Made by a program: the position numbers and the translations under genes
Part shown: positions 9,507 to 63,971 of the stretch, piece after piece
Layout of the letters: each line of letters starts with the position of its first letter
How positions within the stretch are numbered: position 1 is the first letter of the stretch
Notes under the pieces: model-generated
Databases searched by the model: none
What the model saw: the letters and a program-made list of their open reading frames with translations, nothing else
Told to the model about the DNA's origin: nothing
From: Pseudomonadota bacterium
GTDB lineage: Bacteria; Myxococcota_A; UBA9042; GCA-2863065
Length of the DNA: 64,000 nt
Assembly: GCA_005776725.1 (NCBI GenBank)
Contig: SXOO01000280.1
Coordinates: 7,425 to 71,424, forward strand
Reading direction: 5' to 3'

Positions 9507-9511
9507 CTGCC

Positions 9512-13700: not shown

Positions 13701-13837
13701 TCGCGAGGCGCTCGGTCGCCCGCTGCGCGACTGGGTCCCTCTTCACTGGCGTGTACGCCGGCACCTCGCCGCAGGAGAAATTGGGGTGGCGCCGTCCGAG
13801 TGACGCATCAGACCCTGTCGAGTTACCCTGCCGGCGC

Positions 13838-33285: not shown

Positions 33286-33626
33286 CTCTCTACTCCGATC
33301 CGTTCAAGTCGGGCTAGGGCCGCAGCACCGGGGGTCTCTGTGGCGAATCCAGCGCCCGCACACCCCCCGATTCCCCACTCGCTGGCCGCGAGTTCGTGGT
33401 GCCGAGGTGTTGGGCGCCGACGTTAGGCGGCTGTCTCGAGGTGTCAACCTCGTTGCCCTCGAAGGGCACACCGGAAGGCTCACCCGCCAAGACACCGGGA
33501 CACCGCGCGGCCGATTCGGTTGACCTTGGGGAGCTACACTGCGATCCTGCGGCACATCGCCCACCGTCGGCCCAGAGAGCGGCCCCGACTTCGGCGCGAC
33601 GAGACCTCGCGAGGAGCGCGTCCAGC

Positions 33627-34547
33627 GTGAAGCACATCCGGTCCTGCCTCGTCCTCTGGCTGATCCTCGGTCCGTTGGCGGCTGCCGCGGCGCCACCAGC
33701 GGAAGGCAACGTCAACCTCGTGAACTTCTCGCCGGCCGGCGGCCGGTACCGCCTGTTCGCGGTCGAGTCCGCGGACGTCGGCCCCGCCTGGCAACCCTAC
33801 GGACACGTCCTGTTCCACGGCGCGCGGGACGTCCTTCAGCTCAGCGCTGGCGACCACACCGAGACGGTGGTCAAGGAGCAATATCTCGCCGACGTGAACG
33901 TTGGCGTGGGGCTCTTCGGCTTCCTGTCGCTAGACCTCACCCTGCCGCTGGGCCTGGCGATGAGCTCCGGCGACGGCGCCACCTCGCTCGCCGGGGTCTC
34001 TGGCGCCGGCCTCGGGGATATGGTCGTCCGCATCAAGGGCACCCCGCTCGCCACCGGGACAGCGGGCTTCGGCGTCGGCTTGGAGCTCGCGGCCACCGTC
34101 CCCACCGGCGACGGCGACCGCTTCCGGGGAGACCCTGGCGCAGGCCTCATCGCGGCGGCGATCCTCGATCACGCGTGGTCGATCGCGCGCCTCTCGCTCA
34201 ACCTCGGCGTCCGGATTCGGTTCGAGGAGAGCTCCTACCTCAGCGCCACGTTCGGGAACGAGCTCACCTTCGGCCTCGGCGTCCTGGTCGAGCTCTTCGA
34301 CCGCCGCCTCGGCCTCGCCTTCGAGCTCCAGGGTCGCACGCCGCTCACCGCGGAGGCCTTCGACAACACCAACACCACAGCCGTCGAGATCATGCTCGGG
34401 CCGCGCTGGTGGATCATCGATTCACTGGCCTTCGAGCTCGGGCTCGGCGCCGGGTTGGTCCAGGGCCTCGGAGCGCCCACGTTCCGCTTCAACACGGGCT
34501 TCGTCTGGGCGCCAGCGGCCCTCGCAGCGCCGACGGGAACACCATGA
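33627..34547 (+). CDS. secreted beta-rich (putative outer-membrane barrel-like) protein, homologous to the penultimate domain of the two downstream giant proteins
   Basis: GTG with SD gaggag. Signal peptide, alternating Gly/hydrophobic pattern, C-terminal ...[11 protein letters not shown]. Colinear with giant1 (about 41091-41930) and giant2 (about 49186-49990), sharing [31 protein letters not shown] and GAGLVQG. Confidence 0.65.
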
Positions 34548-37500
34548 CGAGAGTCCTCTTCACCAGCCTCCTACTGGCCGCGCCCTTCGCGCGCGCCGCG
34601 GAAGATTGCGCGAACGGCATCGATGACGACGCCGCCGGCGGCGCGGACTGCGCGGATCCGGCCTGCGCGGCCGACCCGTTCTGCTCGCCCTGCAACGTCG
34701 ACCTCACGTTCGACACCGGCCAGGGTCCGGTCACCGTGCCCACGGCGGTCTTCACCTGGGCCCAGGCCACCGGCGACGGGCTCATCGCCTCGGGCGGGCT
34801 CGCGGGCCTCACCCCATCGGCGGTGTCCGACGTGTTCACGGTGCCGGTCGCGGTGCCAGCGGCGGGCGAAGCGCCCAGCCCGCGCGTGGAGGTGGTGTTC
34901 TCGCTGAAGAGCAAGGCGTCCGCCGAGGACACGCACCAGGACACCTTCACGGTCTGCGTCGGCGTGCCGTGTACGAAGGACACCCCCAACCCGCTCTACC
35001 GCACGAGCCGCGACACCACTCCAGGCCTGGCCCCTTTCGGCGTGCCCAGCCCGCCATCGTTCAATGACGGTGTTTTCGACCACGTCTTCCTCGACCTCAC
35101 GGCCCACGCTGGGTCCACCGTGACGCTCGCGTTCGCCATCGACGCGCCCGCAGGGGGCTCCGCCGGGCGAAAGGGTCTCCGCGTGTCACGCCTGATCGTC
35201 GGGTCGGACGTTGACGTAGACGGCGCCTTCGAGGGCGTCGCGGGCAGCTGCGACCGCTGCTGGGACGCCGACAAGGACACCTACGTCGACGCCGCGGGCC
35301 CGGCCACCGCGGCCGAGTGCACCGCCCCCGACCTGGACTGCGACGACACCAACGCCGCCGTGAACCCCGCCGCCGCAGAGCAGTGTGGCGTGGTGGGAGA
35401 CGACGACTGCGACGGCGTCGCCGACGCGCTCGACTCGGACTGCGGCGTGGAGGACTGCGCCAACGGGGCAGACGACAACGGCGACGGTCAGGTCGACTGT
35501 GCGGACGTCACCTGCGGGTCGGACGCCGCGTGCGCCCCATGCGGCACTGTCCTCAATCTCAACCGCGGCGGCGCGGCCTTCGTGGCCGCCGACGACAACC
35601 CCGACGCCAACGCCGCGACACGCCTCTTCACCCACGGGCCGAACCCCTCGCTCCCCACCGAGATCGGCTGGTGGACCGCCCGCACGGGCACGGTGAGCAC
35701 ACACTCGGGCGTGAAGCCGGTGCATGCCACGCTCACCCGCAGCTTCGATGTCTCGTCCGGCTCGCTCAGCCCCAGCCTGCGCGTGTCGTACCGCCTCCGC
35801 GGCGAGGCCGCGGCCGGCAAGGACGTGTTCGGCGTGTGCTTCAACACGCCCGCGACGGAGTGTCGGGCCGACGCCCCGGCGAGCGCCCTGGCCTTCTCGA
35901 CGCACGTCGACACCGCAGCCACCGGCACCACGAACATCGACGTGCCCCTGCCGGCGAACAGCGCGGGCAAGACGGTGTCGGTGACGCTGTTCTACGACAC
36001 GGTCGACGGCGCCAATAACGCGAACGCCGGCCTCTTCATCGACGCCGTGAACGTGGCCAGCGACGCCGACGCGGACGGCGCGTCCGAAGACTCGGTCACG
36101 CAAGGGTGCGACCGCTGCGTGGACCAGGACCTGGACACGTTCGGCCGTGAGGGGATCCCCGGCGTCTATGTGTCTGAGTGCGCGTCCAACAAGCGCGACT
36201 GCGCGGACACCATCGCCACGGCCTTCCCGGGAGCTACCGAGCTCTGCGACGGGACCATCGACCACGACTGCGACGGCAAGGCAGACGCGGACGACAGCGA
36301 CTGCACCACCTGCGGAGACGGCGTCGCCAGCGCCTCAGAAGAGTGCGACGACGGCGCCAAGATCTCGGGCGACGGCTGCAGCGCCAGCTGCGAGCTCGAG
36401 GCGAACGCGCTCGTCCTGAGCGAGCTCCACTTCACGAAGCTCTCCCCCACCGCCTTCGGGGAGCAGTTCGTCGAGCTCCAGAGCCGCACCCTCGCCAAGA
36501 TCCACCTCGGCGGGCTCGCCGCGGGCCTGCGTCGCAGCACCGGCCAGGAGCTCCGCTTCGCGGATTGCGCCGCCGCGAGCCTCGTCCTCGCCGGCAACGG
36601 GCGCGTTGTCGTGAGCCTCGGTACCGCGGGGACCTCCGACGGCCTCAACGCGGCGATCCGTTGCGACGAGGACTTTCAGCTCGACCCGACCGGCGACGTA
36701 GTCACCTTGCTATCTGGCGCAGACACGCTCGACACGGCCGACGCGCGCCCCTTCGCGTGCGAGCTGTCCGAGGCCGCCGCCGCGGGGCGCGGGCGGTCGC
36801 TGGAGCGCCTGAACCCGGCCAGCAACCCGAACGACGCGGCGTCTTGGTGCCTCGCGTCCACGGCGACGAGCTACGCCACCTCGGGCAAGCACCACGGCTC
36901 GCCCGGGTCCGCGGGCGCCTGTGCGGAGCGCGCCTGTGACGGCGTGGACGACGACTGCGACGGCGCCACGGACGAGCTCCTTCCCGATACCGACGCGGAT
37001 GGGACCTGTAACGACCGCGACTGCGCGCCGCTGGTACCTTCTTGCGCGCTGGACTGCGCCACGGACGTGGACGGGGACTCCACGCCCGACTGCCGCGACG
37101 GCTGCATCGACTCGGACGGCGATGGCTGGGGCGTGGCCGGAGGCCTCCCGAGCTCCACCTGCAAGACGCTCGCGGGCGTAGCGAAGAGCGACTGCGAAGA
37201 TGATCTGGCGTTCGCCAACCCCGCGGCGTCGGAGGGACCCAGCGCCGCCTCCTGCCTCGATGGCGTGGACGACGACTGCGACGGCACGCCCGACTGCACG
37301 GACCCGAGCTGCGCCGGCACCGCCGCGTGCTCCGGTGAGGCGTGCGGCCTGCCGCTCACCCTCACCTGCGGCCAGGTCCGAGTGATCGAGCCGGAGGGCA
37401 ACGACTTCCCCTGTGGGCCCGGTGCGGACGCGGTACTCCGCTTCGTCGCGCCGCGCACCGAGCTGGTTCGCCTCGACGTGAAGAGCGGCGGCAGCCAGCA

Positions 37501-40500
37501 GTACGCCGGCCGGATCTTCGACGTCGCGTGCTCGAATCAGGCCTGCGCGCCGGGGATCGCAGACGCCGAGTCGTCCTGCCAGGAGCCCGGAACCGCCACC
37601 TTCTCGGCCGTGGCCGCCAAGGCGTACACGATCGTCGTGGACCAGCTGGCCAGCTGCTCCGCGTCGGGCGCCGCGCCGGTCGAGATCAAGCTGACCTGCG
37701 CCGAGCACTGCACCGGCGGGGTCGACGACGACGGCGACCTCTTGGCCGACTGCGCCGACAGCGACTGCGTGAGCCAGGCGGTGTGCGCAGGACAGGACTT
37801 CGACGGCGACGGCATCGCCAATGGTCTCGAGCTCACGTGTGGCGCCAGCCCCACCTCGCCGTTCCAGTCGCCCTCCCCCGCCGACGTTCAGAACCCGGAC
37901 AACGACAGCCAGCTCTCGTGCGTGGACGCGGACGACGACAACGACGCCGCCTCTGACGTCGTGGAGGCCGCTCAGTGCGCCGCCGGTGCCTCCGTGGACG
38001 CCAGCGTGTACCCCGGCGCCCCGCGCCAGTGCGGCAACGCGGGCGTAGACGCGAACTGCAATGGCATCGTCGACTCCGCGGAGGCCGAGTGCGGCGCGGT
38101 CGAGTCGCAGTGCGCCGACGCCAAGGACAACGACAGCGACGGCGCCAAGGACTGCGCCGACCCCGACTGCATCCCCTCGCTCGCCTGCGCCGCCCTGGAC
38201 TTCGACGGTGACCTGATCGCGAACACCATCGAGCTCGCGTGTGGGACCAACCCGCTCGACAAGAACCTGAAGCCCACGGCCACCGGCGCCGCCGATGGGG
38301 ACGGCGACACGGTCCCGAGCTGCGCCGACGCGGACGACGATGGCGACGGCTGGGACGACGTGGTCGAGTTCTCGTGCGCGTCGAACCCCGTGAACGCGTC
38401 CTCGACGCCGGTCGACACGGACGGTGACACCCAGTGTGACGCCGTGGACCCGGACGACGACGCGGACGGCTTCGCGGACCTCATCGAGGTGCAGTGCGGC
38501 TCCAGCCCCACGCTGGCGACCGAGACGCCCATCGACGCGGTCCGTGACCTCGACCTCGACGGCGTTTGCAACGCTCGTGACGTGGACCTCGACGGCGACG
38601 ACTGGACCAACGGCGTCGAGGAGGCCTGCGGCACCGACGTCGCCGACGCCAACGACAACCCTGAGGCCGCCGGTCTCGACGGTGACGACGACGGGCTCTG
38701 CGACGCGCTCGATGGGGACGACGACGGTGACACCTGGTCCGATGAGAAGGAGGAGCTCTGCCAGAGCGATCCGCTCTCCCCGGACTCCGTGCCGGCCGAC
38801 GTCGACGGCGACAGCATCTGTGACGCCTACGACGTGGACGCAGACGACGATGGCTGGCCCGACACGCTCGAGGTGCTGTGCGGCACCAACCCGCTGCTGG
38901 CCGCGAAGAACCCCAGCGCCGAAGGCCAGGACGAAGATGCCGACAAGCTCTGCGACAGCCTCGACGCCGACGACGACGGCGACGGTTGGTCCGACGAGGC
39001 CGAGGCGGTTTGTGAGTCCGACCCGAGAGACCCCAACGCGCTGCCGGCGGACCTGGACGACGACCACGTGTGCGACCTCCGCGACGACGACGACGACGGG
39101 GACGAAGCGATGGATGCCAGCGAGCTGATCTGCGGCACGGATCCGGCGGATGCCACCTCGAAGCCGATCGACACCGACGGAGACGGCGTGTGCGATCCGG
39201 TGGACACCGACGCCGACGAGGACCTGGACGGCTGGAGCAACGGAGACGAGCTGGCGTGCGGAACCGACCCGAAGGTGCCGGCCGACAAGCCGCTGGACAC
39301 GGACGCGGACAAGGTCTGTGACGTGCTCGACGACGACGACGACAACGACGGCTGGAGCGACCTGTCGGAGCTGCTGTGCGGCACCTCCGCCACCAACGGG
39401 GCCGTGGAGCCCGTGGACACCGACGGGGACGCCACGTGCGACGCCATCGACACGGACGACGACGGCGACGGCGCCTCCGACGCAGATGAGGCGCTCTGCC
39501 TCACGGATCCGAAAGACCCCACGGTGCTCCCCTTCGAGCCCGATCTCGCGGACACGGACGGCGACCAGATCGCCGACTGCGTCGATCCCGACGACGACGA
39601 GGACGGCATCCCGGACGTGGTCGAGCTCGGCGATACGAAGCTCGCGGACACCGACACGGACGGCCTGGACGACGGGACGGAGGACGCCAACAAGAACGGC
39701 GTCGTGGACACGGGCGAGACCGACCCCACGAAGGGCGACACCGACGGAGACGGACTGATCGACGGTGAGGAGGTTGCGAGCTGCTACGGCGAGGCCTGCA
39801 CGAAGACCTCCCCGACGTCGCGCGACAGCGACTCGGACGGCCTGTCAGACGCGGAGGAAGACGCCGACAGCGACGGGAGCGTGGGCGAAGGCGAGACGGA
39901 TCCGACCGTGTTGGACACAGACGGCGACACCTCGAGCGACGGGGTCGAGGTCGGCTGCGCGACCGACCCGCTCGACGCGACCAGCTTCCCGGTGGACAAA
40001 GACCAGTCCGGCACCTGCGATGGCGCCGAGGCCGACAGCGACGGCGACGGGATCGCGGATGGCGTGGAGACGCGCTGCAAGACGCTCCCGGGCAGCGCTG
40101 CCAGCGTGCCGCCGCTCACCGAGCTAGACGACAAAGACGGCGACGGTGAGCTCGACTGCTACGACACCGACGACGACGACGACGGCGCGATCGACGCGGC
40201 CGAGGCCCAGTGCGGCACGTCCACGAAGGACGCGGGCGCGGTGCCGTCACCCGCGGATCTCGAGGACACCGATGACGATGGCCAGCTCGACTGCGCCGAC
40301 GACGATGACGACGCGGACGGACTCGACACGAACACAGAAAAGATCTGGGGGACCGACGCGCTCGATGGTGACACGGACGACGACGGGCTCTCTGATGGCG
40401 CAGAGGTCACCATCCACGGCACCGACCCGACAAAGCTCGACACCGATGGCGACGGCGTGGCCGACGGCGTGGAGCTCGGGGTCACCGAGCCCGTCTTCGG

Positions 40501-42760
40501 CACGGCGGACAGCTTCGAGCCCGATCTCGACCCGAGCACCGTGACGCACCCCACGCGCGTCGACACCGACGACGACGGCCTCGCCGACGGCTCCAACGCG
40601 CAGGGCGGGGAGGACATGAACCATAACGGGCGAGTGGACGCGAGCGAGTCGGATCCGAACGACCCGAACGACGGGCTCCGCGACCAGGACGGCGACGGGC
40701 TCATCGATCGCGACGAGCTCACCCTCTGGGACACGAAGGTGGACGATCCGGACTCGGACGACGACCAGCTCGACGACAAGCTCGAGGTCAGCGTGTACGA
40801 GACCAACCCGAACGACCCCGACTCCGACAAGGGGGGCATCGCCGATGGCGCCGAAGTCACGGCCGGTACGGATCCCACCAAGAAGGACGACGACTTCTCG
40901 GCCTCCAAGGTCGTAGGCGACAACGTGTTCGGCTGCGACGCAGGCGGCCCAGGCGCCCTCGGAGGCGCCGGCGGCGTCCTCGCGGCGCTCCTCGCCCTGC
41001 TCTTCGCCCTCGGGCGCCGGAGCTCGCGACCGCTCGTGGGGGGCCTGCTCTTGGCTGGGGCCCTTCTCCCCGGCGAGGCGGGCGCGCAGCGCGTCGGGAA
41101 CGTCAACGTCGAGCAGTACCAGCCCGCGGGCGGGCGCTTCCGCGTGTTCAGTGTGGAGCAGGCGCCTGTCGGGCCGGCTTGGCAGCCCTACGCGCACGTC
41201 CTGTTCCACGGCGAGCGGGAGAGCTTCCAGGTGGCCGACGCCGCCGGGATCCGCACCGAAGTCCTTGTCGACACGACCACCTTCATGGACCTGAACCTGG
41301 GCGTGGGCCTCGCCGGCATCCTGCAAGTAGACCTGGGCCTTCCGGTCGCGCTCGAGATGAGCACCGCTCCCGACGTGACCGCTGTGGAGCCGGTGGGACG
41401 CACAGACGGCGCGGGGCTCGGTGACCTGGTCCTGCGACTCAAGGGCACGGCCATCGACAGCACGGGAGGCGGATATGGGCTCGGCTTCACCCTCGGCGCG
41501 TCCTTCCCCACGGGCGATCCCGATCGCTTCCGCGGCGACGAGGGCGTGGTGGTCCTCCTCAATACGATCAATGAGTTCCGTTCCACCTGGGCGGTGCTCT
41601 CGCTCAACCTGGGCGGCCGGTTCCGCACGGCGCCAGTCGAGTTCCTCGGGCGCGACTACGGCAACGAGCTCTCATACGGTCTCGGCCTGGACGTGGCGGC
41701 CTGGATCGGCCACGTCAACCTGGGCCTCGAGCTCTTCGGGCGCACCCCGCTCACGGCGCCATTCGACGGTGTGGAGAACACCGGACTCGAGGCGCTGCTC
41801 GGCGTGAAGTGGTGGATCGTCTCGGGCCTGTCGCTCGAGATCGCAGGCTCCATGGGCCTTGTGCAAGGCGTGGGCACGCCCGACTTCCGGTTCGTCACGG
41901 GGCTCGCCTGGGCTCCTCGCGAGGCCGACACCGACGGTGACCTCATCGACGACGTGGACGACGCGTGCCCGCTCGAGGCCGAGGACAAGGACGGCTACGC
42001 CGACCTCGACGGCTGCCCAGAGGCGGACAACGACGGCGACGGCGTGGCCGACGCGAACGACAAGTGTCCCTACCAGCCGGAGGACAGGAACGGCAGCCTG
42101 GACGACGACGGCTGCCCGGACGGAGACGACGACGGAGACGGCAAGCTCAACATCGTGGACCGCTGCCCGAAAGGTGCCGAGGATCCGGACAACTTCCAAG
42201 ACGGCGACGGCTGCCCGGATCCAGACAACGACGGAGACGGGATAGACGACGTGAAGGACAAGTGCGCCTTGGTCGCCGGCGGGGCCACGGACACGAACCA
42301 CGATGGCTGTCCCGACGCGATCGAGCTCGAGATCGCCACTCAGACCCCCGAGGAGGCCGCTGATCCCTGTCAGTTCGAGATCGCCGAGCGGGTCCCCTTC
42401 GACCGGCTGTCCACGACGCTCGACTCCGAGGCCCGGGCGGTGGTTCGTTCAATGGGCGATCGCCTCCTCGCGCGCCTCACGGACAGCAAGTTGCCGCCGA
42501 TCGAAGAGGTGAGTGTCAACGGGCATACACGGGCCGAGGGCGCCGACGCGGAGACGCTCGCGCTCTCGCGGCGACGCGCCCAGTCGGTGCGGGACGCGCT
42601 GGTGGAGCGCGGCTCGGTTCCGAGGTCCATCACACCGGCGCGCGGCTACGGCGAGACCGAGCCGCTCTCTGAAGAAGCGTCGTCTCGGCGCGTGGAGATC
42701 AAGGTGAGGATCGGCGGCCGCTGTGCGGATGTCGGGGCGAAGACGGAGGGCGGCCGATGA
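34544..42760 (+). CDS. giant (2738 aa) acidic Ca-binding surface/OmpA-anchor fusion protein: SP, MopE-like motifs, lamin-tail domain, about 40 TSP3-like repeats, internal MYXO-CTERM-like + internal SP-like segment, barrel-like domain, TSP3 repeats, OmpA C-terminal domain
   Basis: ATGA overlap with 33627-34547. N-terminus [32 protein letters not shown] ([25 protein letters not shown]). TSP3-like repeats of the form DTDGDxxCDxxDxDDDGDGW plus CGTDP. OmpA motif [24 protein letters not shown]...SRRVEIKV. Confidence 0.8.
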
Positions 42761-45700
42761 AGTCCCACCACCTGCTACTCGCGCTCCTCGCGCTGGCCCC
42801 CCGCGCCTACGCGGCCGAAGACTGCGCCAACGGGATCGAGGACGACACCGGCGGCGCCGACTGCGCCGATCCCGCTTGCGCGGCTGACCCGTTCTGCACC
42901 GACCTCTGCGGCACGTCGCTCACCTTCGCCACCGGCCGGCACACGGCTGAGCTGCTCACGGGCTTCGTGCACGCCAGCGGCGGCCTCGAGGCCCAAGGCA
43001 CCGGCGCCCTCAAGGTGGACCTGGTGGTGCCGCTCGAGCGCCCCGAGGCCAGACTCGAGCTGGTCCTCCGCAAGGAGGGCGCCGATCCGCTCCACGTCTG
43101 CCTCGACCTCGCGTGCACGCAGCCCCTGCTCACGGTGAACGGCGCCTCGGGGTCCATCACCCACACAGCCGGCGGGTTCTACGACGGCACCTTCGATCAC
43201 GTCTTCGTGGACCTCACGAGCAAGCGCGGGTCCACGCTGGCGGTCTTTGTGGTGGTGCCAACGGTCGCCACGGGGAATCCGCTCACGCGGCTCGAGGCGC
43301 TGCGGCTCTCGTCCGACGTGGACCGCGACGGCTTCTTCGACGGCGCCGCGGCGAGCTGCGACCGCTGTTGGGACGTAGACAACGACGGCGCCGCGCGCGC
43401 CGATAGCCCTGGCCTCTGCGGCGTTGCGGACTGCGACGACACGACCAGCGCCCGAGCTCCGGGCCTGACCGAGCTCTGCAGCGGGGGGATCGACGAGGAC
43501 TGTGACCTCCTGGTCGACGGTCTAGACGTCGGGAGCTGCGGTATCGAAGACTGCGCCAACGGGGCGGACGACAACGGCGACGGCAGCATCGACTGCGCTG
43601 ACCAGACGTGCGCCAGCGACCCCGCCTGCAGCCCGTGCCTGCCGAAGCTCACGTTCGCAACGGGGACCAACGGCGCCGTCGCCAGCGACAACGATCCCGA
43701 CGGTAATACGCAGACCCAGGTCTTCCGCCAGGGCGCCAGCGCGGCTCACGCGGGGGCGATCGGCTTCTCGACCGCGCTCACGGGCACGGTCTCTAGCCAC
43801 GGCGGCGGCCGGATCACTGCGGCGATCGCGCGCACCTTCCCTGTGCCATCCGGCCTCCCGGCACCGACCCTGCGCCTGCGGTATGCGCTCGATGGGGACG
43901 CGCAGGCGGGCAAGGACGTCGTCCTCGTGTGCTTCGACGTCAAAGCCTCGAACTGCACCACGTCCGTCACCGGCGCCGCTACGTGGACCTCTGACGTGAA
44001 CACCGGAGTGGGGATCGTGACCGTGGAGGTGCCCCTCCCCACGTCGGCCATCGGCGCGGTGAACGTGGTCGTGGCCTACGACACGGTCGACGGCGGCGGA
44101 AACGGCAACCGCGGGCTCTTCGTCGATGAGCTCAGCGTCGGGAGCGACCTCGACGGCGATGGGCTCGGCGAGGACCCGGCCATCGTGGGATGTGACCTCT
44201 GCGTCGACGCCGACGACGACGGCTACGCGCCCGCCTCGGTCGCCGCGGTCTTCGCCAGCGGATGCACCTCGGTCGCCGCCGACTGCGACGACGACTCGGT
44301 CGTCGCTAATCCCGGCGCCACGGAGCTCTGCGATCTGGTCGGCGATCAGGACTGCGACGGGCTGGCAGACGCCGAGGAGCCGAGCTGCTCCTCTTGCGGC
44401 AACGGCGCCGTCACCGCTGGCGAGACCTGCGACGACGGCGGGATTGCCCCCGGCGACGGCTGCTCGGCCACCTGCCGCCTCGAGACCGGCGCCCTGGTGG
44501 TGACGGAGCTGCACCTCACGCGGTTCGACCCCACGGCCCTCGGCGAGCAGTGGCTCGAGCTCTACAACGCCACGTCGGCCCCCATCGACCTCGCGGCATC
44601 CGGGATCACCCTCGGGCTGGACGTCTCTGTGCCGCTGCGCGACTGCACCGTGCTCACCACCTCTGTCGTGGCGCCCGGCGGCCGGCACGTGGTGGCCCTG
44701 GGGCCGCAGAACACCCTCGACGGCCTCGACGCGGATCTCGCGTGCGGCTCCGGCACGCTGGGCGGCCTCGTCGCGGTCTCGGCCGAGAACGACTCGCTCG
44801 ACACCGTTGACCTCGCGGCCCTCGGCTGCGAGCTGGCGGGCGCCACGAAGCCCGGCGTTGGGCGCTCGCTCATCACCGCGGCCACGGTCCACACGGGCAA
44901 CGACGCGGCCTCGGCGTGGTGCCTGGCGTCCACCGCCAGCTCGTACGCGAACTCCGGCCGTCACCACGGCTCACCCGGGTCCGGCGGGGGATGCGGCGAG
45001 GTGGTCTGCGACGGCATCGACGACGACTGCGACGGAACGATAGACCAGGGCTTCCCTGACGCGGACACCGACGGGACCTGCGACGCGCGGGACTGCGCGC
45101 CCCTGGTGAAGAGCTGCACCAATGATTGTACGACCGACGTGGACCTCGACAGCACCCCGGACTGCCGGGACGGCTGCATCGACGGCGACGGCGACGGTTG
45201 GGGCACGCCCGGCGGCCTCTTGCCCGCGACGTGCAAGACCCAGGGCGGGACGCCGCGCACGGACTGCGACGACACGCTCACCATCGTGAGCCCAGAGGCC
45301 ACCGAGGGCGGCGCGTCCTGCACCAACGGCCTGGACGACGACTGCGACGGCAAGGCGGACTGCTCGGACAGCGCGTGCGGCCTCACCGCGGCGTGCGCGG
45401 GCGAGAGCTGCGCCGCGCCCACCCCTCTCGCGTGCGGCGCCACGGTGGTGGTGGAGCCCGAGTCCAACGACGCCACCTGCAGCCCGGGCGTGGACTCGGT
45501 CTTCGTCTTCAACAGCACCTTCGACGGGAACGTGATCCTCGAGGTCCAGAACCTCGGGCGCCTCCAGTACAACGCGTTCCTCCACAAGACGAGCTGCAAC
45601 GCGGCGTGCCCGGCCGGGATCGCGCCCATCGGGAGCACCTGCGCGGCGGCCGGGAGCGGCACGGTCCCCGTCACGCCGGGCACCCCACTGTTCATCACGC

Positions 45701-48700
45701 TCGACAACGTGTCGGCCTGCGCGGGTAGCGGCTCGGGCGCGGCGCGCCTCACGCTGCGGTGCTCGGAGGCCTGCTCCGGCGGCGTGGACGACGACGCGGA
45801 CGGCAAGACCGACTGCGCGGACGACGACTGCGTCGCCTCGGTCAGCTGCGCGAACGTGGACTTCGACGGCGACGGGCGGGCGAACGGCGTCGAGCTCATC
45901 TGCGGGCGGGATCCCGTGAACCCGGGCTCCGTACCGTCGGCCGACGACGTGGCAGAGGCCGACACCGACACGCTCCTCAACTGCGTGGACAACGACGACG
46001 ACAACGACGGCCACTCCGACAGCACCGAGGCCTCCCAGTGCCAGCTGAGCGCGGGCGCCAAGAACGACTCGGACGTCTATCCCGGCGCGCCGCTGCAGTG
46101 CGCCATCGCCGCGGTCGACGCCGACTGCGACGGCTTCTTCGACAGCGAGTCGGCCGAGTGCGGCTTCATCGAGCAGCAATGCGGCGACAACCTCGACAAC
46201 GACGGCGACCAGAAGGCGGACTGCCAGGACCTCGACTGCGTTCTCCTGCCCATCTGCGGCCTAGCCGACTTCGACTCGGACGGCGCCTCGAACCGCACCG
46301 AGCAGCAGTGCAACACGAAGCCGACTCAGGCCTCCTCCGTGCCGAGCGACGCCGCGGCGTCGGATCAGGACAACGACACCCTCGCTGCCTGCATCGACAC
46401 CGATGACGACGGGGACCAATCCGACGACACCGAAGAGCTGCTGTGCGGCTCGGATCCGGCCGACGCGACGTCGACGCCCCCGGACCTGGACAACGACGGG
46501 CAGTGCGACGCGTTCGACGACGATGACGACGCCGACGGCTTCCCGGATCTCGTTGAGGTGGACTGCGGCAGCGACCCGGAAGACGCTGGGAGCCGCCCGG
46601 ATCAGCCGGCCTACGATCTGGACGACGACGACATCTGCGACGCGCGCGACGCCGACCGAGACGGCGACGACTGGACGGACGCGGAGGAGAACACCTGCGG
46701 GACCAGCCTCGCCAATGCCTCCGAGAGCCCGAGCAGCGCGGGCCTCGACGTGGACGACGATCACCTCTGCGACGCGGTGGACGAGGACGACGACGGTGAT
46801 GACTGGTCAGACGCCGAAGAGCTGCTCTGCGAGACCAACCGGCAGGACGCGGCAGACTCCCCGGCCGACACCGATGACGACGGCATCTGCGACCTCATCG
46901 ACTCGGACCCCGACGGCGATCTCTGGCCGGACGTCCTCGAGACCCAGTGCGGCACGTCTGCGTTGATCCCCGCCGACAACCCGACGGCCCTCGGCGCCGA
47001 CGTGGATGGAGACATCCTCTGCGACAAGCTCGACTCGGACGACGACGGCGACGGGTGGAGCGACGTCCTCGAGGTCCAGTGCGGGACCTCGCCGGCGCTC
47101 AAGGCGTCGGCGCCCACGGACACGGACGGCGACAAGACCTGCGATCCGAGCGATGACGACGACGACGGCGACGTGTCGCTGGACGCCACCGAGGCGCTGT
47201 GCGGCACGGACCCTCTGTCGGCCGAGTCCACCCCTGTCGACACGGACAACGACGGCCTCTGCGACGCGCGCGACCCGGACGCGGACCCCGATGGCGACGG
47301 CTGGTCCAGCTACAAGGAAGAGGCGTGTGGCACCAAGCCCCACGATGACAGCTCCACCCCCACGGACGCGGATGCGGACGGCGTGTGTGACGCGCTCACC
47401 GTGGACGACGACGGCGATGGCTGGCCCGACGCGGTGGAGGTGAGCTGCGGCACGGCGCCCGAGCTCGCGTCGAGCACGCCGGTCGACACCGACAAGGACG
47501 GCCAGTGTAACGGGGTCGATACCGACGACGACGCGGACGCCGCCCCGGACACCGCCGAGCTCACCTGCGGGACCGATCCGCTGGACGCGAAGAACCACCC
47601 CACCACGCTGGACCTCGTCGACGCGGACGGCGACGACGCGCCCGGCTGCGTGGACGAAGACGACGACAACGACGGGCTCCCCGATGTGGCCGAGGCCCTC
47701 CAGGGCTCCAACCCGCTGGTCACCGACAGCGACGGCGACGGCCTCACGGATGGCGAAGAAGACAGCGACCTCGACGGGACGCGCGACCCGAACGAGACCT
47801 CGCCGGTGCTCCCAGACACCGACGGCGACGGGCTATCGGACCGGGTCGAGACCCTGAGCTGCTATCTCGGCGACGGCGCGGCCACCGCATGCCAGGAGTC
47901 GAGCCCCACGAAGCCGGACTCCGACGAAGACGGTGTCCCCGATGGCCTCGAGGACAAGAACGGCGACGGGAAGACCGACGACTCCGAGACGAACCCCCTG
48001 AAGCTCGACACCGACGCGGACGGCCACAGCGATGGGTACGAGCTCGGCTGCGCGACCGATCCGCTCGCAGCGGAGAGCGTCCCGGTCGACAAAGACGCCT
48101 CGGACGTGTGTGACGGCGCCGAGGTCGACAGCGACGCGGACGGGATCGCCGATGGCGTCGAGCTGCTCTGCGGGACGAAGCCGCTGGACAAGAAGTCGGT
48201 GCCAGAGCTCGGCACGCTGGTCGACACCGATGGTGACGGCGACCTCGACTGCAGCGACGAAGACGACGACGACGACGGCACCCCCGATGTCTTCGAGCTG
48301 GCGTGCGGCACGGGCCCGCTCGACGCCGCCGCCAAGCCCCCCGAGGGCGCCACCGCCGACACCGACGGCGACGGCACGCTCGACTGCGCCGACTCGGACG
48401 ACGACGGCGACGGCCTGTCGGACACGGGCGAGCAGACGCTGGGGACCGACGCGCTCGACGCCGACAGCGACGACGACGGCCTCCTCGACGGCTACGAAGC
48501 AGGCATCACCGGGACCTCGCCGAACGCGGCGGACAGCGACGGCGACGGCGTGCAAGACGGCACCGAGCTGGGCGTGACCGAGTCCGGGCCGTTCACCGGG
48601 CCGAGCTTCCAGGTGGACGCCGATCCCGCCACCACCACCGACCCGCGCTCCGACGACACGGACAACGACGGCCTTACCGATGGCCTCGAGGACGCGAACG

Positions 48701-50823
48701 CGAACGGCAAGGTCGACGCGGGTGAGTCCGATCCGAACGTGGCCGCAGACGGGAAGAAGGACACCGACGGCGACGGCCTGGCGGACGTCGTTGAAGAGTC
48801 GCTGTGCGAAGAGGGCGTTTGCCTCGATCCCACGAACCCCGACACCGATGGAGACGGCGTGAACGACAAGCTCGAGAAGGACGTCCACGGGACCTCGCCG
48901 TTCGCGGCCGACACCGACGGCGGCGGCGTGAACGACGGGTTCGAGCTCTCGAACGGCACCGATCCGAAGGACGCCGTCGACGACTTCAGCAAGGCCACCG
49001 TCACCGGAAACAACGTCTTCCGCTGCGATGGCGGCCCGGGCTCCCCCGGGGGCGCGGGCGTGTTCCTGCTGGTGCTCCTCGGGCTCCTGGTGAGCCGTCA
49101 CGCGCGGCGCGGCGCCCTGCTCGCTCTGGTGGGCCTGCTCGGGCTCGCCTCGAGCCTGCCTGGGACCGCGAACGCGCAGACCGCCGGCAATATGAACATC
49201 GAGAACTTCTACCCGGCGGGCGGTCGCTACCGTGTCTTCTCGGTGGAGCAGTCCGTGGTGACCCCGGCGTGGCAGCCGTTCGGCCACCTGCGCTTCCATG
49301 GGGAGCTCGACACGCTCCGCGTGCAGACCGGCAGTGCCGAGCAGGTCCTGGTGGAGATGCAGACGGTGGCTGACCTCGGCATCGGGCTCGGGCTCGGCGA
49401 CTGGGCGCAGCTCGAGGTGGCCCTGCCGTTCATCGCGTCGGTGTCGTCCGGCGATGACGTGAGCGCCATCGCGCCGATCGAGGGCGCCGGGCTCGGGGAC
49501 CTGGTCGTGCGAGTCCGCGGCACCTTCCTCCCGAACCGGGTGGGCGGCGTCGGTGTGGGCATGTCGGTTGGGGCGACGATCCCCACCGGCGACGGCACGC
49601 GCTTCCGCGGTGATCCGGGGGTCGGGGTCCTCGCCAACTTCCTGCTCGACCACCGGAGCGAGCGCGTGGACGTGGCCCTCAACGTGGGCGTTCGTATCCG
49701 CACCGAGGAGGCCGAGTTCCTGGGCCGGACCTTCGGCAACGAGCTCACGTACGGCGTGGGAGTGGACGTCAGCCTCCTGCGGCGGCGCATCGACATGGGC
49801 GTGGAGCTGTTCGGGCGCACCCCGCTCGAGGAGCCGTTCGGGGACGCGGACCACACCACGCTCGAGCTGCTGGGCGGCCCGAAGTGGTGGATGTGGCAGG
49901 GCCTTGGCCTCGAAGCGCACGTCGGCGCCGGGCTCGTCCAAGGCTACGGCGCACCGAGCTTCCGCTTCGGTCTCGGGCTCTCCTGGGCCCCCGCCCACGA
50001 GGACGCGGACGGCGACGGTGTGAGCGACGACACCGACGCCTGTCAGTTCACGGCCGAGGACAAAGACGGCTGGGCTGACGACGACGGCTGCCCAGATCTG
50101 GACGACGACAACGACAACTTCGCGGACAAGGACGACCGCTGCCCGCGCGAGCCCGAGGACCGCAACGGCATCGACGACGGCGACGGCTGCCCGGACGGCG
50201 ACGTCGACGGCGACCGTATCGCCGACGCGATCGACCTGTGCCCGTACGACCGCGAGGACGTGGATCTGTTCGAGGACCGCGATGGCTGCCCCGAGCTCGA
50301 CAACGACCATGACGGGATCCTCGACACCGCGGACGCCTGCACCGAACAGGCCGAGACCATCAACGGCTTCAAGGACCGAGACGGCTGCCCGGACGAAGCG
50401 CCTCCCATCGTGAAGCGGAACGTGGTGCAGTGCCGCCTCCAGCTCGCCCGGATCGGCTTCGATCAGGCGAAGGACGTGCTGCGGCCAGACTCCCAGGCCA
50501 AGCTGAACCGCGTGGCCGAGGCGATCGCGAGCTACGTGTCGAACGGCGACCCCCCGCTGCTGCACGTCTACGTGTCGGGCCACGCCTCGGAAGAGGGTAC
50601 GGACGTGAACAACTACGACCTCTCGCTGCGGCGCGCACTGCAGGTGTACGACTTCCTCCTCGACCGGGGGATCTCGGCGTCGCTCCTGGCGCGACGGGGC
50701 TTCGGCGAGGCGAAGCCGCTCCTCGACGAAGAGGGTGACCCCGCGCTCCGCGACAATCGCCGCGTCGAGTTCGACGTGGAGCTCGGCGGGCCCTGCGCCG
50801 GCGCGGCCGTCTCCACCGACTGA
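42757..50823 (+). CDS. giant (2688 aa) paralog with the same architecture
   Basis: ATGA overlap. Colinear with 34544-42760. OmpA motif [24 protein letters not shown]...NRRVEFDVE. Confidence 0.8.
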
Positions 50824-50858
50824 GCGAAGGGCTCCTCCGCGCCCGCGCAGTCCGCGCA

Positions 50859-50877
50859 CTTCGGGTCGGCCCCGAAG
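50859..50877 (+). terminator. 7-bp perfect hairpin (cttcggg-tcggc-cccgaag) 35 nt after the giant operon stop
   Basis: Direct reading. There is no U-tract, which may be usual in a high-GC genome. Confidence 0.3.
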
Positions 50878-51000
50878 AGGCGCACCGCTTGGTGGGCACC
50901 CGCGCGATCACCGCCCCGCTCCGAGGCAACCAAGCGGTCTCTATCCTGTGAGGCGGCCGGCCTGGGACTCGCCGCCCACCGTGCCTGAAAGGCACTCGTC

Positions 51001-51882
51001 ATGCGCGTGCTCACGATCGACTTCGAGTGCTGGCCCCAGATGGTGTACGGCGAGCTGACGGGCCAGGACCGGGCGGTCGGGCGCGACGGGCTGGAGCGGG
51101 CCACCGATACGCTCCTCGCGCTCACCGAGCGCCACGGCGTGCGAGCCACGGTGTTCGTGCTCGGGGTCACGGCGCGGGCGTTTCCGGACTTGGTCCGGAG
51201 AATCCACGCAGCAGGCCACGAGCTCGGCGCCCACGGTGAGACCCACGAGCGCCTGGACCGTCTCACGCCGGCGCGCCGCCAGGCGTCGATGCGCGCTGTG
51301 AAGGCGCGTCTCGAGGACCTCGTGGGCGCCCCGGTCCGCGGCTTCAGGGCGCCTTACTTCTCGATCGTGCGGAGCAACCTCGACGCGCTCGAGGAGCTGG
51401 CGGACGCCGGTTTCGCCTACGACAGCTCAATCGTACCCATCGTGCATCGACGCTACGGCGTTCCCGGCTGGCCTCGCGGTCCCGAGCGCGTCGCCGGCGG
51501 GAGGCTCGTGGAGCTTCCGCTGGCCACGGTCGCAGTGGGCGCAGGGAACCTCCCCGTCGCGGGCGGGGGGTACTGGCGCGCCTTGCCCGACTCGTGGGTG
51601 GTGCGGGGCCTCGAGGCTGCGAATGACCAGCCTGCCGTGGTCTATCTGCACCCGTATCAGCTGGACCCGCAGCCGCCCGAGGCGGTCCCGGGGCCGCTCG
51701 GTCCGCTGAACCGCCTCCGGGCCGGTGCGTTCCGCCTGGCTCAGCGACTCGGGCGGTCGGGGAACCCTGCCCTGCTCGACCGGGTCCTGCAGACCGGGCA
51801 GTGGACCACAGCCGGGGAGCTCGTGGACGCGTTCTTGACGGCCGCTCCCCCATCCGCCACACCCGGTGCGCAATGGAGATGA
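51001..51882 (+). CDS. polysaccharide deacetylase family protein (NodB-like, DUF3473-type as found in exosortase/EPS loci)
   Basis: MRVLTIDFECW...HGVRATVFVLG...GHELGAHGETHE...GFRAPYFSI. Confidence 0.75.
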   Translation: MRVLTIDFECWPQMVYGELTGQDRAVGRDGLERATDTLLALTERHGVRATVFVLGVTARAFPDLVRRIHAAGHELGAHGETHERLDRLTPARRQASMRAVKARLEDLVGAPVRGFRAPYFSIVRSNLDALEELADAGFAYDSSIVPIVHRRYGVPGWPRGPERVAGGRLVELPLATVAVGAGNLPVAGGGYWRALPDSWVVRGLEAANDQPAVVYLHPYQLDPQPPEAVPGPLGPLNRLRAGAFRLAQRLGRSGNPALLDRVLQTGQWTTAGELVDAFLTAAPPSATPGAQWR

Positions 51883-57219: not shown

Positions 57220-57468
57220 TCTCAGTCAGCGCACGGCGGCGCGGTGCGCGTCGCCGCGCCAGACGTGAGGGGCGAGCAGACGCTTGGCTCGACCTCGGCG
57301 GGTGCCTTGAGATAGACTCCCGCCGCCCGTTCCGCCGCCCCAAAAGCTGTGTGGACGGGCGAGATCACAGCCGGGTCCGCTCCAGCATGGTCGGTCGCCG
57401 GCGTGGTCGCTTCAGGCGACCACATGCCATGCGGTGCGTGCCCGCACCGTCGACTCAGGGAGCGGACG

Positions 57469-59361
57469 ATGCGGTTTACGTGGGCCTTCGGTACGTTGGC
57501 GGTGTTCCTGTCCAGCGGGTGTGGCGGCGACCTCTCCGAGGGCCTGCGGCCCGAGTTCCTGGCCTTCATCGCCGGAGAGCCGGTGCCGGCAACGGCCACG
57601 GACGGGCTTCACGCCCGTTACGAGTTCACCCGGCTCACTCCCGGGAACGGCTCCACGGCGCGCGCCCGGGTCAACCTCCTGAACAACGGTGGGGAGCCGC
57701 TGCGGATCACCCGCGTCCTGCTCGAGCCGACCAATGTCGACGGCACGCCCAAGAGCCCATGGATCGTCCTCGACTGGGGTGCCCTGGATCCCTCCCTGCT
57801 CTTCTGCACCACCGCAGACCTCTCCTCGTGTGGCTACGTGCTCGAGAGCGGGAAGAACCTCGAGTTCGAGGTCACCTACTCGCCCGGGGACGCGTGCTCG
57901 GCCGCGGGGGACTGCGAGGACCAAGCCACGCTGCTGGTCTCGCATACCGAAGCAGGGAGCCCCACGCGCATGGAGTTCGGCCCGCCCAAGTGCAGCCGCC
58001 TCCCGCGCGTAACGCCCCCCACGGACACCTTCTTCAACGCCTCGATCGCGAAGCCTGAGCGCAAGACGTTCACGATCACCAACACCGGCTCCTGCGGCTG
58101 CGCGGTCAACGACGTGGCGTTCAACACGGCCACGAGCAAGTTCCAGATCAGCCGGGCGTGGACCAATGGGACCGAGCTCGGCCCCGACGACGAGCTGACC
58201 TTCGAGGTCACGTACACGCCCACCGAGTCCGGCGCCGCGGACTCCGTCAACGTCGCCGTCTCGTTCGACTGCACGCAGACCCCGATCGTGGTGAAGCTCG
58301 ACTCGAAGTTCGAGACCGGCACCTACGAGATCACGTACGACAACAAAGAGAACGGCTTCCTAGACTTCACGCAGGTCTCCGAGGGCTGCGCCGAGAAGGT
58401 GGTCTCGCTCTACAACGTGGGCCCCTCCAGCATGCAGGTCCAGGGCTGGGCCGTGCCCGAAGACACGGAAGGCAAGTTCTACACGCTCAGCTGCCAGCTC
58501 CCGCCCGCCCAGGAGGGCGCCAACGCGACGCCGGTGCCCAAGCCGCCCGCCGGACTCGCAGCGGGTCGGACGCTCGAGTGCACCGTGAAGTACTGCGCCG
58601 CTACGCTGGCCGGGAAGAACGCCACCGTGGTCTTCACCTACGCCAACCCGGCGCAGGGCACCATCGAGGTGCCGGCGTTCGGGGGGCAGCCGAAGTCCTG
58701 CTTCGAGTACGCGCCCGGCGACGCCGCCAGCGACACGCCGCTCACGTTCTACTCCACCGGTAAGGGGGAGGCCGACAAGTCCCGGTTCGTGGTCTACAAC
58801 TGCGGCAACGCCGAGCTCACCGTGAACGCGGTGCGCATCGAGGACGCCTTCCTCCCCGGCAACCCGTCCAAGTATTTCCAAGTTCTCGAGGCGCCCGCTT
58901 TCCCCTTGGTGCTGCCCGTCGGCGGCCTCCAGCAGATCGAGGTGGAGATGGTGGTCGACGACGAGTCTCCGTCGGTCGATGGCACCCTGTACGTCGACTA
59001 CCTCGATCCCCAGGGCACGCCGGTCACCAGCTTCGGCCGCGCGCTGACGGGCGTCGTCGCCCCCACGGTCGAGCCGCCCATCGCGGTGCTCGAGCTCGTC
59101 GGGGAGGCCAAGTTGGGCGCGTCGTTCACGCTCACCGGACAGAACAGCTCGGGATCCATCGACGACAACGGATACCTCTTCTACCTGCTCGAGAAACCCG
59201 CAGGGAGCGGTGTCGTCGTCAACGGCGCGCCCGCCGCGGCCGCGGTAAACGTCACGCCGGACGTGGCTGGAAAGTACCGCTTCGCCCTCCTCGTCTTCTC
59301 CGACACGGACCCCTTCTACTACAGCCACGAGGCGACGCTCGACGTCGACGTCGCGCCCTAA
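57469..59361 (+). CDS. lipoprotein with repeated Ig-like (choice-of-anchor/ASH-like) beta-sandwich domains
   Basis: Signal plus lipobox FLSSGC. Repeated segments of the form ...FEVTY(S/T)P.... Confidence 0.55.
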   Translation: MRFTWAFGTLAVFLSSGCGGDLSEGLRPEFLAFIAGEPVPATATDGLHARYEFTRLTPGNGSTARARVNLLNNGGEPLRITRVLLEPTNVDGTPKSPWIVLDWGALDPSLLFCTTADLSSCGYVLESGKNLEFEVTYSPGDACSAAGDCEDQATLLVSHTEAGSPTRMEFGPPKCSRLPRVTPPTDTFFNASIAKPERKTFTITNTGSCGCAVNDVAFNTATSKFQISRAWTNGTELGPDDELTFEVTYTPTESGAADSVNVAVSFDCTQTPIVVKLDSKFETGTYEITYDNKENGFLDFTQVSEGCAEKVVSLYNVGPSSMQVQGWAVPEDTEGKFYTLSCQLPPAQEGANATPVPKPPAGLAAGRTLECTVKYCAATLAGKNATVVFTYANPAQGTIEVPAFGGQPKSCFEYAPGDAASDTPLTFYSTGKGEADKSRFVVYNCGNAELTVNAVRIEDAFLPGNPSKYFQVLEAPAFPLVLPVGGLQQIEVEMVVDDESPSVDGTLYVDYLDPQGTPVTSFGRALTGVVAPTVEPPIAVLELVGEAKLGASFTLTGQNSSGSIDDNGYLFYLLEKPAGSGVVVNGAPAAAAVNVTPDVAGKYRFALLVFSDTDPFYYSHEATLDVDVAP

Positions 59362-63008: not shown

Positions 63009-63971
63009 ATGATGCTGGCACTCCTTCAGCCCGGCCTTCGACGCGCGCGGAGACTCCCCGCGCGTGAGACGGAGGAGCGCGCCTTGCGCCGGGCGATCCT
63101 GCTGGGGACCGTCGTCTTCCACCTCGCGCTCTTGGCCGCGGCGGTGGAGCTGAAGCCGCCCCCGGTCTTCACTCCGGTGCCTGAGCCCGTGCCCGTCTTC
63201 ACCATCCAGGAGATCACGGTCATCAACGAGCGGGAGGAGGACGAAGAGCGGGAGACGCCCGACGAGGAGGTCGCCTTCGTCGATCCCCCGGAGCCGCTCC
63301 GCGCCTTGCCGCTCCCTCACGCTCAGATTGCGGACCTGCCGTCGGGGCCCAGTATCGCGCTCCCGCAGCTTGTCCCCGTGGCCGCGCCCAGCCTGCGAGA
63401 GGGCTCCTCTTCGGCCCGATTGCGGGGCCTCTTCGCGCGCGACCACGCGGTGGCCACCCTCGCCATGTTGGGCACCGGCTCCGGCAACTCGCTCACGTCC
63501 CTGCAACACGACGAGCTGGTCGAAACGGCCGTGCTCAGCTCGGCGCTGGGTGGCGTGGTCGGGGGCGTGCCCACAGGCCTTCTGGCCGCGGGCGGCGGAG
63601 TCATTGGGGCCATTGGTTCTGGTTCGGGAGCGATCGGCGGGCTCACCGCCAGCGGTACGCTGTCCCAGGAGGACGATCTGCTTCGCCGCTACACGCAGCG
63701 GATCCGCGCCGCGATCCTCCGAGCCCGCGAGTACCCGGCCGCCGCCGAAGACGCCGGGCTCGAAGGCCGCGTGACCTTGAATGTCACCATCGACGGGGCC
63801 GGGACGATCCTCGAGGTCACGCTCGCGAAGAGCTCGGGTCACTCCGTGCTGGACGAGTCGCTCTTGGCTTCAGTGCGGCGCCTGGCGAACCTCCCGCACC
63901 CCCCACCGGAGCTCCAATGGGAGCGGAAGACCTTCAGAATCAGCGTCCACTTCGAGCTCGACGACCTGTGA
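63009..63971 (+). CDS. TonB-family energy transducer (C-terminal TonB domain)
   Basis: N-terminal TM segment, a Pro-rich linker, and a C-terminus of ...AEDAGLEGRVTLNVTIDGAGTILEVTLAKSSGHSVLDESLLASVRRL.... Confidence 0.7.
   Translation: MMLALLQPGLRRARRLPARETEERALRRAILLGTVVFHLALLAAAVELKPPPVFTPVPEPVPVFTIQEITVINEREEDEERETPDEEVAFVDPPEPLRALPLPHAQIADLPSGPSIALPQLVPVAAPSLREGSSSARLRGLFARDHAVATLAMLGTGSGNSLTSLQHDELVETAVLSSALGGVVGGVPTGLLAAGGGVIGAIGSGSGAIGGLTASGTLSQEDDLLRRYTQRIRAAILRAREYPAAAEDAGLEGRVTLNVTIDGAGTILEVTLAKSSGHSVLDESLLASVRRLANLPHPPPELQWERKTFRISVHFELDDL

Follow-up and report, generated by a model that had tools for sequence, protein, structure and literature searches.

Why would a bacterial protein carry, deep inside a single open reading frame (ORF), a C-terminal sorting tag that is directly followed by a signal peptide? 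This question is raised by a 64,000-nucleotide stretch of contig SXOO01000280.1 (assembly GCA_005776725.1, positions 7,425 to 71,424 of the forward strand; hereafter the window). The window has a G+C content of ~70% and contains two very long, adjacent ORFs on the same strand, giant1 and giant2. The initial annotation of the window, made from its letters, proposed that an internal sorting-signal/signal-peptide junction followed by a homologous barrel-like domain is conserved in these two diverged paralogs, and that it is functional rather than a sequencing artefact. Our data suggest that giant2, and likewise giant1, is probably a fused two-partner precursor that joins a giant calcium-binding repeat adhesin to a TraB-like outer-membrane anchor. 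By analogy, it would correspond to the traA/traB-type pairs of overlapping genes that other myxobacteria have.

giant2 is a single plus-strand ORF of 2688 amino acids (aa; 42757..50823), with no stop codon and no frame change through the junction. A GGAGG Shine-Dalgarno motif sits 7 nt 5' of its ATG. By inspection of the translation, the protein is predicted to start with a signal peptide (42757..42813) followed by AEDC. The exported adhesin-like part (42814..49011) was characterized by Pfam and NCBIfam matches, which showed that the N-terminal ~2,080 residues hold many calcium-binding TSP3 repeats of the CglD-like type, together with acidic double-disulfide repeats and MopE-type Cys motifs. 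The junction lies at 49012-49179 and ends in Q2141; the initial annotation had placed it at 49018-49185, within 6 nt, and had given its peptide strings exactly. It opens with N2086-V-F-R-C2090 (49012-49026; Cys2090 codon at 49024-49026) and a G/S/P spacer, DGGPGSPGG (49027-49053). Hydrophobic segment 1 (13 aa; 49054-49092), a basic loop, SRHARRG (49093-49113), hydrophobic segment 2 (15 aa; 49114-49158) and a c-region, PGTANA (49159-49176), follow in order, and the barrel domain begins at Q2141 (49177). The first half of the junction (49012..49113) forms an internal MYXO-CTERM-type tripartite tag made of a Cys, a membrane helix and an Arg cluster. The same Arg cluster, SRHARRG, doubles as the n-region of an internal type I signal-peptide-like segment (49093..49176), with a cut predicted before Q2141.

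We assessed the tag with the profile hidden Markov model (HMM) TIGR03901 (MYXO-CTERM; curated cut-off, 20 bits), a check that the initial annotation had recommended for both paralogs. The giant2 tag scored 19.4-19.5 bits (E = 0.001), just under the cut-off, and the giant1 tag gave a weak match of 10.6 bits; the check thus came out close to the cut-off for giant2 and weak for giant1. Internal tags in 18/20 fused proteins (the relatives are described below) matched the model at E <= 1 (best E = 9e-6). A Cys in a Gly/Ser-rich context, as expected of MYXO-CTERM, is present at Cys2090 of giant2, and this Cys is invariant in 20/20 fused junctions. The transmembrane helix and short Arg-rich cluster are present in giant2 (13 aa plus SRHARRG) and in giant1 (19 aa plus GRRSSRP). 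The extreme C-terminal position is absent in giant2, where ~570 residues follow the tag.

The second half of the junction has, by inspection, the parts of a Sec type I signal peptide: a basic n-region (SRHARRG), an h-region of 10-15 aa (here 15 aa) and small residues at -3 and -1 (Ala at both in PGTANA, with Pro at -6). In the alignments, the columns of segment 2 coincided with those of the N-terminal signal peptides found in the stand-alone homologs P0001, P0003 and P0006 and in ~55 split loci. The tag score and this alignment bear out the junction type named in the initial annotation. Elsewhere in the window, a plus-strand ORF for a Laminin_G_3/Ig-like protein (31-2130) ends in a canonical terminal MYXO-CTERM, GCGTTRQAGGRWPVAALLAFALLALARRR* (tag ~2041-2127; 21.8 bits). 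Because this tag exceeds the cut-off, the organism appears to use the MYXO-CTERM sorting pathway. The next ORF (2073-3866), which is without a family match, overlaps the end of the Laminin_G_3/Ig-like ORF.

giant1 repeats this layout. It occupies 34544..42760 on the plus strand, with its true start at the ATG at 34544 inside the ORF 34175..42760. It begins with an N-terminal signal peptide (18 aa) and continues with Cys-rich and TSP3 repeats over ~2,100 aa; behind the junction come a TraB-like barrel, further TSP3 repeats and OmpA. Read from the sequence, this junction is at 40922..41086. NVFGC (Cys at 40934-40936) and DAGGPG precede hydrophobic segment 1 (19 aa; 40955-41011), which is followed by the basic loop GRRSSRP (41012-41032), hydrophobic segment 2 (12 aa; 41033-41068), the c-region PGEAGA (41069-41086) and a barrel starting from the Q at 41087. 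The element order across this stretch of giant1 (40922-41089) is that of giant2. The two giants are 44-54% identical around the junction, which is present in both.

We modeled the part of giant2 behind the predicted cut (residues 2141-2688) with AlphaFold2 from a 61-sequence alignment. The model had a mean predicted local distance difference test (pLDDT) score of 89.9, with most of the barrel block at 92-98. It placed beta-barrel strands at model residues 34-270, followed by a TSP3-repeat linker and an OmpA-like domain. On the plus strand of the window, the barrel corresponds to 49177..49986. The periplasmic linker of TSP3 repeats (DxDxDGxxDxxDxCP; 49987..50457) has invariant D/G/C/P columns in two alignments, and the OmpA-like peptidoglycan-binding domain (50458..50751) matched Pfam PF00691 (44.7 bits; aa 2568-2665). 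In Foldseek searches against the PDB, the barrel resembled FapF (5o65/5o68) and a COG4313 channel (4rl8), with TM-scores of 0.58-0.74 normalised to the target at a sequence identity of only 13-17%. The periplasmic half resembled the TSP3+OmpA region of Capnocytophaga gingivalis OmpA (5wtl) and the C-domains of Pal and OmpA. The barrel-like domain of the initial annotation can thus be described with confidence, on the strength of the model, as a predicted 12-strand-type outer-membrane barrel plus TSP3 plus OmpA protein.

The best NCBIfam match of the C-parts was the outer membrane exchange protein TraB (NF033763), at 171 bits for giant2 and 120 bits for giant1, and the OmpA-family matches were clear. 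The architecture of TraB (signal peptide, outer-membrane beta-barrel, TSP3 repeats and OmpA domain) is present in the giant2 C-part. Because these scores, like the 59.5 bits of a neighboring barrel-only paralog, barrel0 (profile positions 17-298), compare with a curated cut-off of 700 bits, the C-parts represent TraB-like paralog families and not TraB orthologs.

The likeness to FapF, a trimeric amyloid-subunit transporter, and to COG4313, a hydrophobic-substrate channel, implies no link to amyloid secretion or hydrophobic-substrate uptake. It fits published speculation that TraB may trimerise via its barrel, and it raises the question of whether the TraB-like barrel conducts anything.

Such a fold could mean that the barrel is not only a partner tethered to peptidoglycan but a dedicated outer-membrane translocator of its own adhesin, a 'split autotransporter' whose fusion ensures delivery in cis. 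That the best barrel folds are a polypeptide transporter, FapF, and the COG4313 channel, and that adhesin and barrel are obligatorily co-encoded, would agree with this. However, many homologous barrels have no adhesin gene upstream, and a Pfam scan returned no match to the autotransporter beta-domain PF03797, so the barrel is not an autotransporter beta-domain. In addition, MYXO-CTERM export is ascribed to the type II secretion system (T2SS), and TraA and TraB are reported to arrive at the outer membrane independently (PMC11980579, PMC12045341). We therefore consider a translocator role unlikely. A type V autotransporter was rejected, as there is no PF03797-type match, two predicted membrane helices and a cytoplasmic loop part the adhesin from the barrel, and the fold is FapF/COG4313-like.

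We searched 5.8 billion proteins for relatives of giant2. Most were stand-alone OmpA-family proteins of 570-700 aa, with a best identity of 52%. Four contig-truncated proteins (P0002, P0004, P0005 and P0061 from Archangium) continue through the same junction. A genome scan with one genome per species gave 80 loci (best locus identity, 47-53%), in which we placed barrel starts by tblastn and then walked upstream in frame, yielding 77 barrel copies. The fused junction was found in 18/77 of these related barrel copies from other Myxococcota genomes (L001, L002, L004, L011, L013, L021, L026, L028, L034, L036, L040, L046, L049, L051, L063, L070, L071 and L077). Their ORFs stay open for 259 to >3,400 codons upstream of the barrel, the shortest values being limited by contig ends. 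L001, L002 and L004 are the closest fused homologs and the other 15 are more distant. The set includes a complete Corallococcus coralloides chromosome (L011), Vitiosangium (L013), Hyalangium (L040) and metagenome-assembled genomes labelled Sandaracinaceae, Haliangiales, Kofleriaceae and Bradymonadia.

The 20 fused proteins share a junction grammar. An invariant Cys is followed by a spacer of 0-13 aa, usually G/S-rich, and by a first hydrophobic stretch (11-19 aa). The loop that comes next is 4-25 aa long, contains 3-10 Arg/Lys, is nearly devoid of acidic residues and leads into a second hydrophobic stretch of 12-24 aa and a short c-region, typically with an AxA-type site and then Q. Judged by sequence comparison, it is not due to chance that this grammar recurs at an identical domain boundary in another 18 fused homologs, which come from independent assemblies.

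The initial annotation had called for a comparison of nonsynonymous to synonymous rates (dN/dS) between the junction and its flanks. With the Nei-Gojobori method (NG86), giant2 compared with giant1, L001 and L002 gave ratios of 0.4-1.2, which are not interpretable because dS is saturated and codon-biased (dS of 0.66-1.0 at 33-56% amino-acid identity; G+C at third codon positions, GC3, ~0.9). Conservation of the physico-chemical grammar was used in its place. Identity across the junction was 33-46%, compared to 50-56% for the flanks, and this lower value is what is expected for segments constrained by composition and not by position.

We next weighed whether the junction could be an artefact, caused by loss of a stop codon, by misassembly or by decay of a pseudogene. 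In favor of this, the window is of metagenomic origin, and the only matching contig found elsewhere was a 1.4-kb one in an ENA metagenome. Against this, two paralogs that are only ~50% identical both carry the junction, as do 18 independent assemblies, including the complete Corallococcus coralloides chromosome, and MXAN_5598 in the finished genome of M. xanthus. GC3 is 0.86-0.92 throughout the giant1 and giant2 ORFs. An artefact is extremely improbable on these grounds. Absence from orthologs had been named beforehand as a reason to discard the junction; we found it in both paralogs, in L001, L002 and L004 and in 15 more distant homologs, one of them in a complete isolate genome. These data uphold the proposal that the junction is no sequencing artefact, and it is in all likelihood functional.

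Split versions of the same gene were found close to fused ones. In the window's own clade, the upstream gene of L003 ends in a terminal MYXO-CTERM, ...SCTTASSSSSRSVAILCALLLAAWGAFVLLRRRANKGSEL*, and is followed by a barrel gene with its own Met and signal peptide. L005, from the same clade, likewise has a barrel gene with its own Met and signal peptide, and its contig ends before the upstream gene becomes readable. In L016 (Myxococcus sp. Y35, Myxococcaceae clade), a 2,811-aa upstream ORF ends in ...GHGCSTGGAGTFAPLALMLLAYPLRNRLRRTGRPHTPAD* and a separate barrel gene follows. L017, L018 and L060 are overlapping or adjacent gene versions. A strict regular expression detected a terminal MYXO-CTERM gene upstream in 4/60 split loci, to which looser inspection added L016; the stand-alone barrels are mostly without such a gene.

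In a neighbor-joining tree of the 80 barrels, the 20 fused tips were scattered among the split ones, and Fitch parsimony required at least 12 changes. The deep branches of this tree are weak, but the two nested fused/split cases described above are clear. Depending on the clade, the Cys is preceded by one of three adhesin types. L063, L070 and L071, and also L021, L026, L028 and L077, are fused behind quite different adhesin types, with beta-sandwich 'choice-of-anchor'-like ends or canonical TSP3 DxDxDGxGDxCD ends, which suggests several independent fusions to TraB-like barrels. Because the signal peptides of split homologs share the columns of segment 2, splits are nested among fusions, the tree is interspersed and the adhesins vary, we argue that the fused and split layouts give the same products.

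The same products could also arise if the barrel/OmpA protein were made separately by internal initiation at the junction, with full-length read-through being incidental. giant2 has an in-frame GTG at exactly a suitable place (49090), and in many fused homologs a Val or Met codon lies close to where helix 1 ends. However, GTG is a common Val codon within hydrophobic helices, and no Shine-Dalgarno motif precedes position 49090 (CTCCTCGGGCTCCTG-GTG), whereas the true giant2 start has GGAGG. Moreover, giant1, L070, L071 and L077 have no in-frame start ahead of the basic cluster. Even with internal initiation, processing would be needed, because without a stop codon the upstream chain runs into the barrel. 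We rate this explanation of the giant2 junction as improbable, and internal initiation is unlikely as a general route.

We propose the following path for the precursor. The N-terminal signal peptide would start Sec export of the adhesin part (~2,070 residues). Transfer would then be halted by the hydrophobic helix of the internal MYXO-CTERM tag, leaving the Arg-rich loop in the cytoplasm, and segment 2 would re-enter the membrane as an internal signal peptide, so that both segments form a helical hairpin in the inner membrane. This topology is predicted because the order of elements (exported part, Cys, out-to-in helix, Arg loop, in-to-out helix, AxA, exported part) matches the positive-inside rule. 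Signal peptidase I would cut after PGTANA and free the barrel/TSP3/OmpA protein, whose predicted new N-terminus is (pyro)Glu-TAGNMNIENFYPAGGR, for insertion by the beta-barrel assembly machinery (BAM) and binding to peptidoglycan. The tag Cys would be lipidated and a myxosortase (MrtX) would remove the hairpin, after which the adhesin would be carried to the cell surface. According to published work, the CPBP protease MrtX cleaves MYXO-CTERM in a Cys-dependent manner, lipidation is probable and surface display depends on the T2SS (PMC11980579). A single translation event would thereby yield both partners at a fixed 1:1 ratio.

Alternatively, the hairpin may stay uncut and give one envelope-spanning polypeptide with two inner-membrane helices and periplasmic domains at both ends. 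This topology is formally possible, given that cleavage of members of this family is a prediction. However, the first barrel strand of the AlphaFold2 model lies ~33 residues past the predicted cut, and a tether of that length from helix 2 to an outer-membrane barrel would be too short for the periplasm; because of this distance, the C-part would need release by signal peptidase I for outer-membrane insertion. The AxA motif is conserved together with the Pro at -6, and in stand-alone and split relatives the corresponding two parts are secreted proteins made separately. An uncut protein is therefore very unlikely.

Several points count against the two-partner precursor. The giant1 tag is a poor HMM match, and the giant2 tag falls just short of the curated cut-off. 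Segment 2 was called a putative signal peptide by inspection and positional homology, and cleavage of the fused members, including MXAN_5598, is a prediction. The in-frame GTG at 49090 would give giant2 a textbook stand-alone signal peptide, and some independent initiation may occur. Finally, the ORFs scanned in the 64-kb window included no CPBP protease (myxosortase), and the window holds no T2SS gene.

The nearest published case is MXAN_5598 of M. xanthus, in which a large N-terminal adhesin region is followed by an internal MYXO-CTERM and then by an outer-membrane barrel with OmpA (Guo et al., mBio 2025; PMC11980579). It was described as a probable gene fusion resembling TraA plus TraB, its gene adjoins ftsA and ftsZ, its N-part was proposed to be processed and surface-anchored, and internal MYXO-CTERM in ORFs was called rare (PMC11980579). 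giant2 has the defining trait of this type, an internal MYXO-CTERM followed by barrel and OmpA in the same ORF. The Corallococcus locus L011, which is homologous to giant2 across the junction and C-part (34% identity; query residues 1-615), lies between ftsA and ftsZ, and L036 adjoins ftsZ, as in the published context. Unlike MXAN_5598, the window genes are not in an ftsA-ftsZ cluster and form a tandem, translationally coupled pair behind a barrel-only paralog. Synteny with MXAN_5598 was rejected on the flanks, which are phosphofructokinase and a major facilitator superfamily (MFS) transporter upstream, and polysaccharide deacetylase and a priming glycosyltransferase (exopolysaccharide genes) downstream. 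giant1 and giant2 are thus new, non-syntenic, tandemly duplicated examples of the MXAN_5598 layout, an architecture that was already published. Our analysis adds to that report (PMC11980579) an explicit internal signal peptide and hairpin reading, a frequency of 18/77 over several orders and repeated switching between fused and split forms. This frequency suggests that the fused layout is commoner than 'rare'.

The barrel-only paralog, barrel0 (33627..34547, plus strand; start codon inferred), is a stand-alone TraB-like barrel with its own signal peptide (22 aa) and without a TSP3 or OmpA part. By tblastn, its identity to the barrel of giant2 is 51%, and the array therefore reads barrel / adhesin-barrel / adhesin-barrel. 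The TGA stop of barrel0 overlaps the giant1 ATG (ATGA at 34544-34547), and the giant1 stop overlaps the giant2 start in the same way (ATGA at 42757-42760). Both ATGA boundaries of the array are of the type described for traA and traB of M. xanthus, whose ORFs share 4 nt (PMC3325183). By our own inference, a 1-nt indel at an ATGA overlap would be enough to make an in-frame fusion. A promoter/terminator scan of 33000-51500 found no sigma-70-like promoter site; it found 8 terminator-like hairpins, which is at chance level (4.0 +/- 2.3 expected), and none at the junction.

Like TraA/TraB, which form a 1:1 complex (PMC12045341), the giants encode a predicted MYXO-CTERM surface protein directly upstream of a signal peptide, beta-barrel, TSP3 and OmpA protein. 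Unlike traA/traB, they are fused in frame and do not overlap out of frame, and a membrane-exchange role in the giants is only putative. The family matches of the N-parts were CglD-like TSP3 repeats, acidic double-disulfide repeats, MopE motifs and DUF4215. Pfam and NCBIfam scans of the N-parts found neither a TraA-type PA14-like variable domain nor TIGR04201 Cys-rich repeats, and likeness of the N-parts to TraA was rejected on this basis.

Cleavage at an internal signal peptide also occurs in unrelated membrane polyproteins. The FbcH cytochrome b/c1 precursor of Bradyrhizobium japonicum is one example. Gn/Gc of bunyaviruses is another (PMC5113920). As in these two, the predicted junction of the giants leads from a membrane helix through a short cytoplasmic loop into an internal signal peptide, and cutting by signal peptidase would yield two membrane or secreted proteins from one translation product. 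The giants would differ in that a second protease, a myxosortase of the CPBP family, is expected to cut the other leg of the hairpin and the hairpin would be discarded.

A broader version of the precursor hypothesis is speculative, and we give it a low probability. The fusion may be more than a stop-codon loss that is tolerated, namely a widespread envelope 'polyprotein' strategy of Myxococcota, in which a disposable inner-membrane hairpin is cut by myxosortase and signal peptidase I and the lipidated giant adhesin and the FapF-like barrel are released side by side. The barrel in cis would then serve as a docking site for the adhesin, or even as a T2SS-independent conduit through the outer membrane.

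The remainder of the window holds further envelope and surface genes, including a CotH kinase-family ORF (4033-5604), an ORF with a choice-of-anchor D domain (57349-59361) and one with a TonB C-terminal domain (63009-63971). A tandem duplication of ~2.5 kb (~6785-9337 and 9337-11880; 75-88% identical) carries two TPR ORFs (7688-9337 and 10240-11880) whose termini are nearly identical. The local G+C is slightly lower (0.67-0.69), and a multihaem cytochrome-like ORF (5830-6954) is adjacent. A plus-strand ORF at 13397-19102 combines Dictyostelium-type CTDC Cys repeats with an ALK/LTK-like glycine-rich domain, an unusual pairing for a bacterium, and overlaps an FGE-sulfatase-domain ORF (12732-13700). 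A minus-strand SbcC/Rad50-like ATPase (20718-23777) adjoins a Dam-family adenine methyltransferase (23856-24725) and a quinone oxidoreductase (24857-25885). A plus-strand ORF of 690 aa (25978-28050) has three stretches matching the Rcas_1661 family thioredoxin-like (seleno)lipoprotein (147.9 bits; cut-off 190).

For annotation, the fused layout matters because MYXO-CTERM models and gene callers assume a terminal tag, and fused proteins are consequently mislabelled "OmpA family protein" or truncated. What these data add is breadth, together with a defined grammar for the junction and a topology that can be tested, and not a new principle; the natural alternation of fused and split forms provides ready-made controls. 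If both cuts occur, the giants would be a clean bacterial case of one gene giving two envelope proteins, in which a single Arg cluster serves both a C-terminal sorting tag and an N-terminal signal peptide, the two together making up a disposable hairpin. This would explain a fixed 1:1 ratio of a surface adhesin and its peptidoglycan-tethered outer-membrane partner, matching that measured for TraA:TraB.

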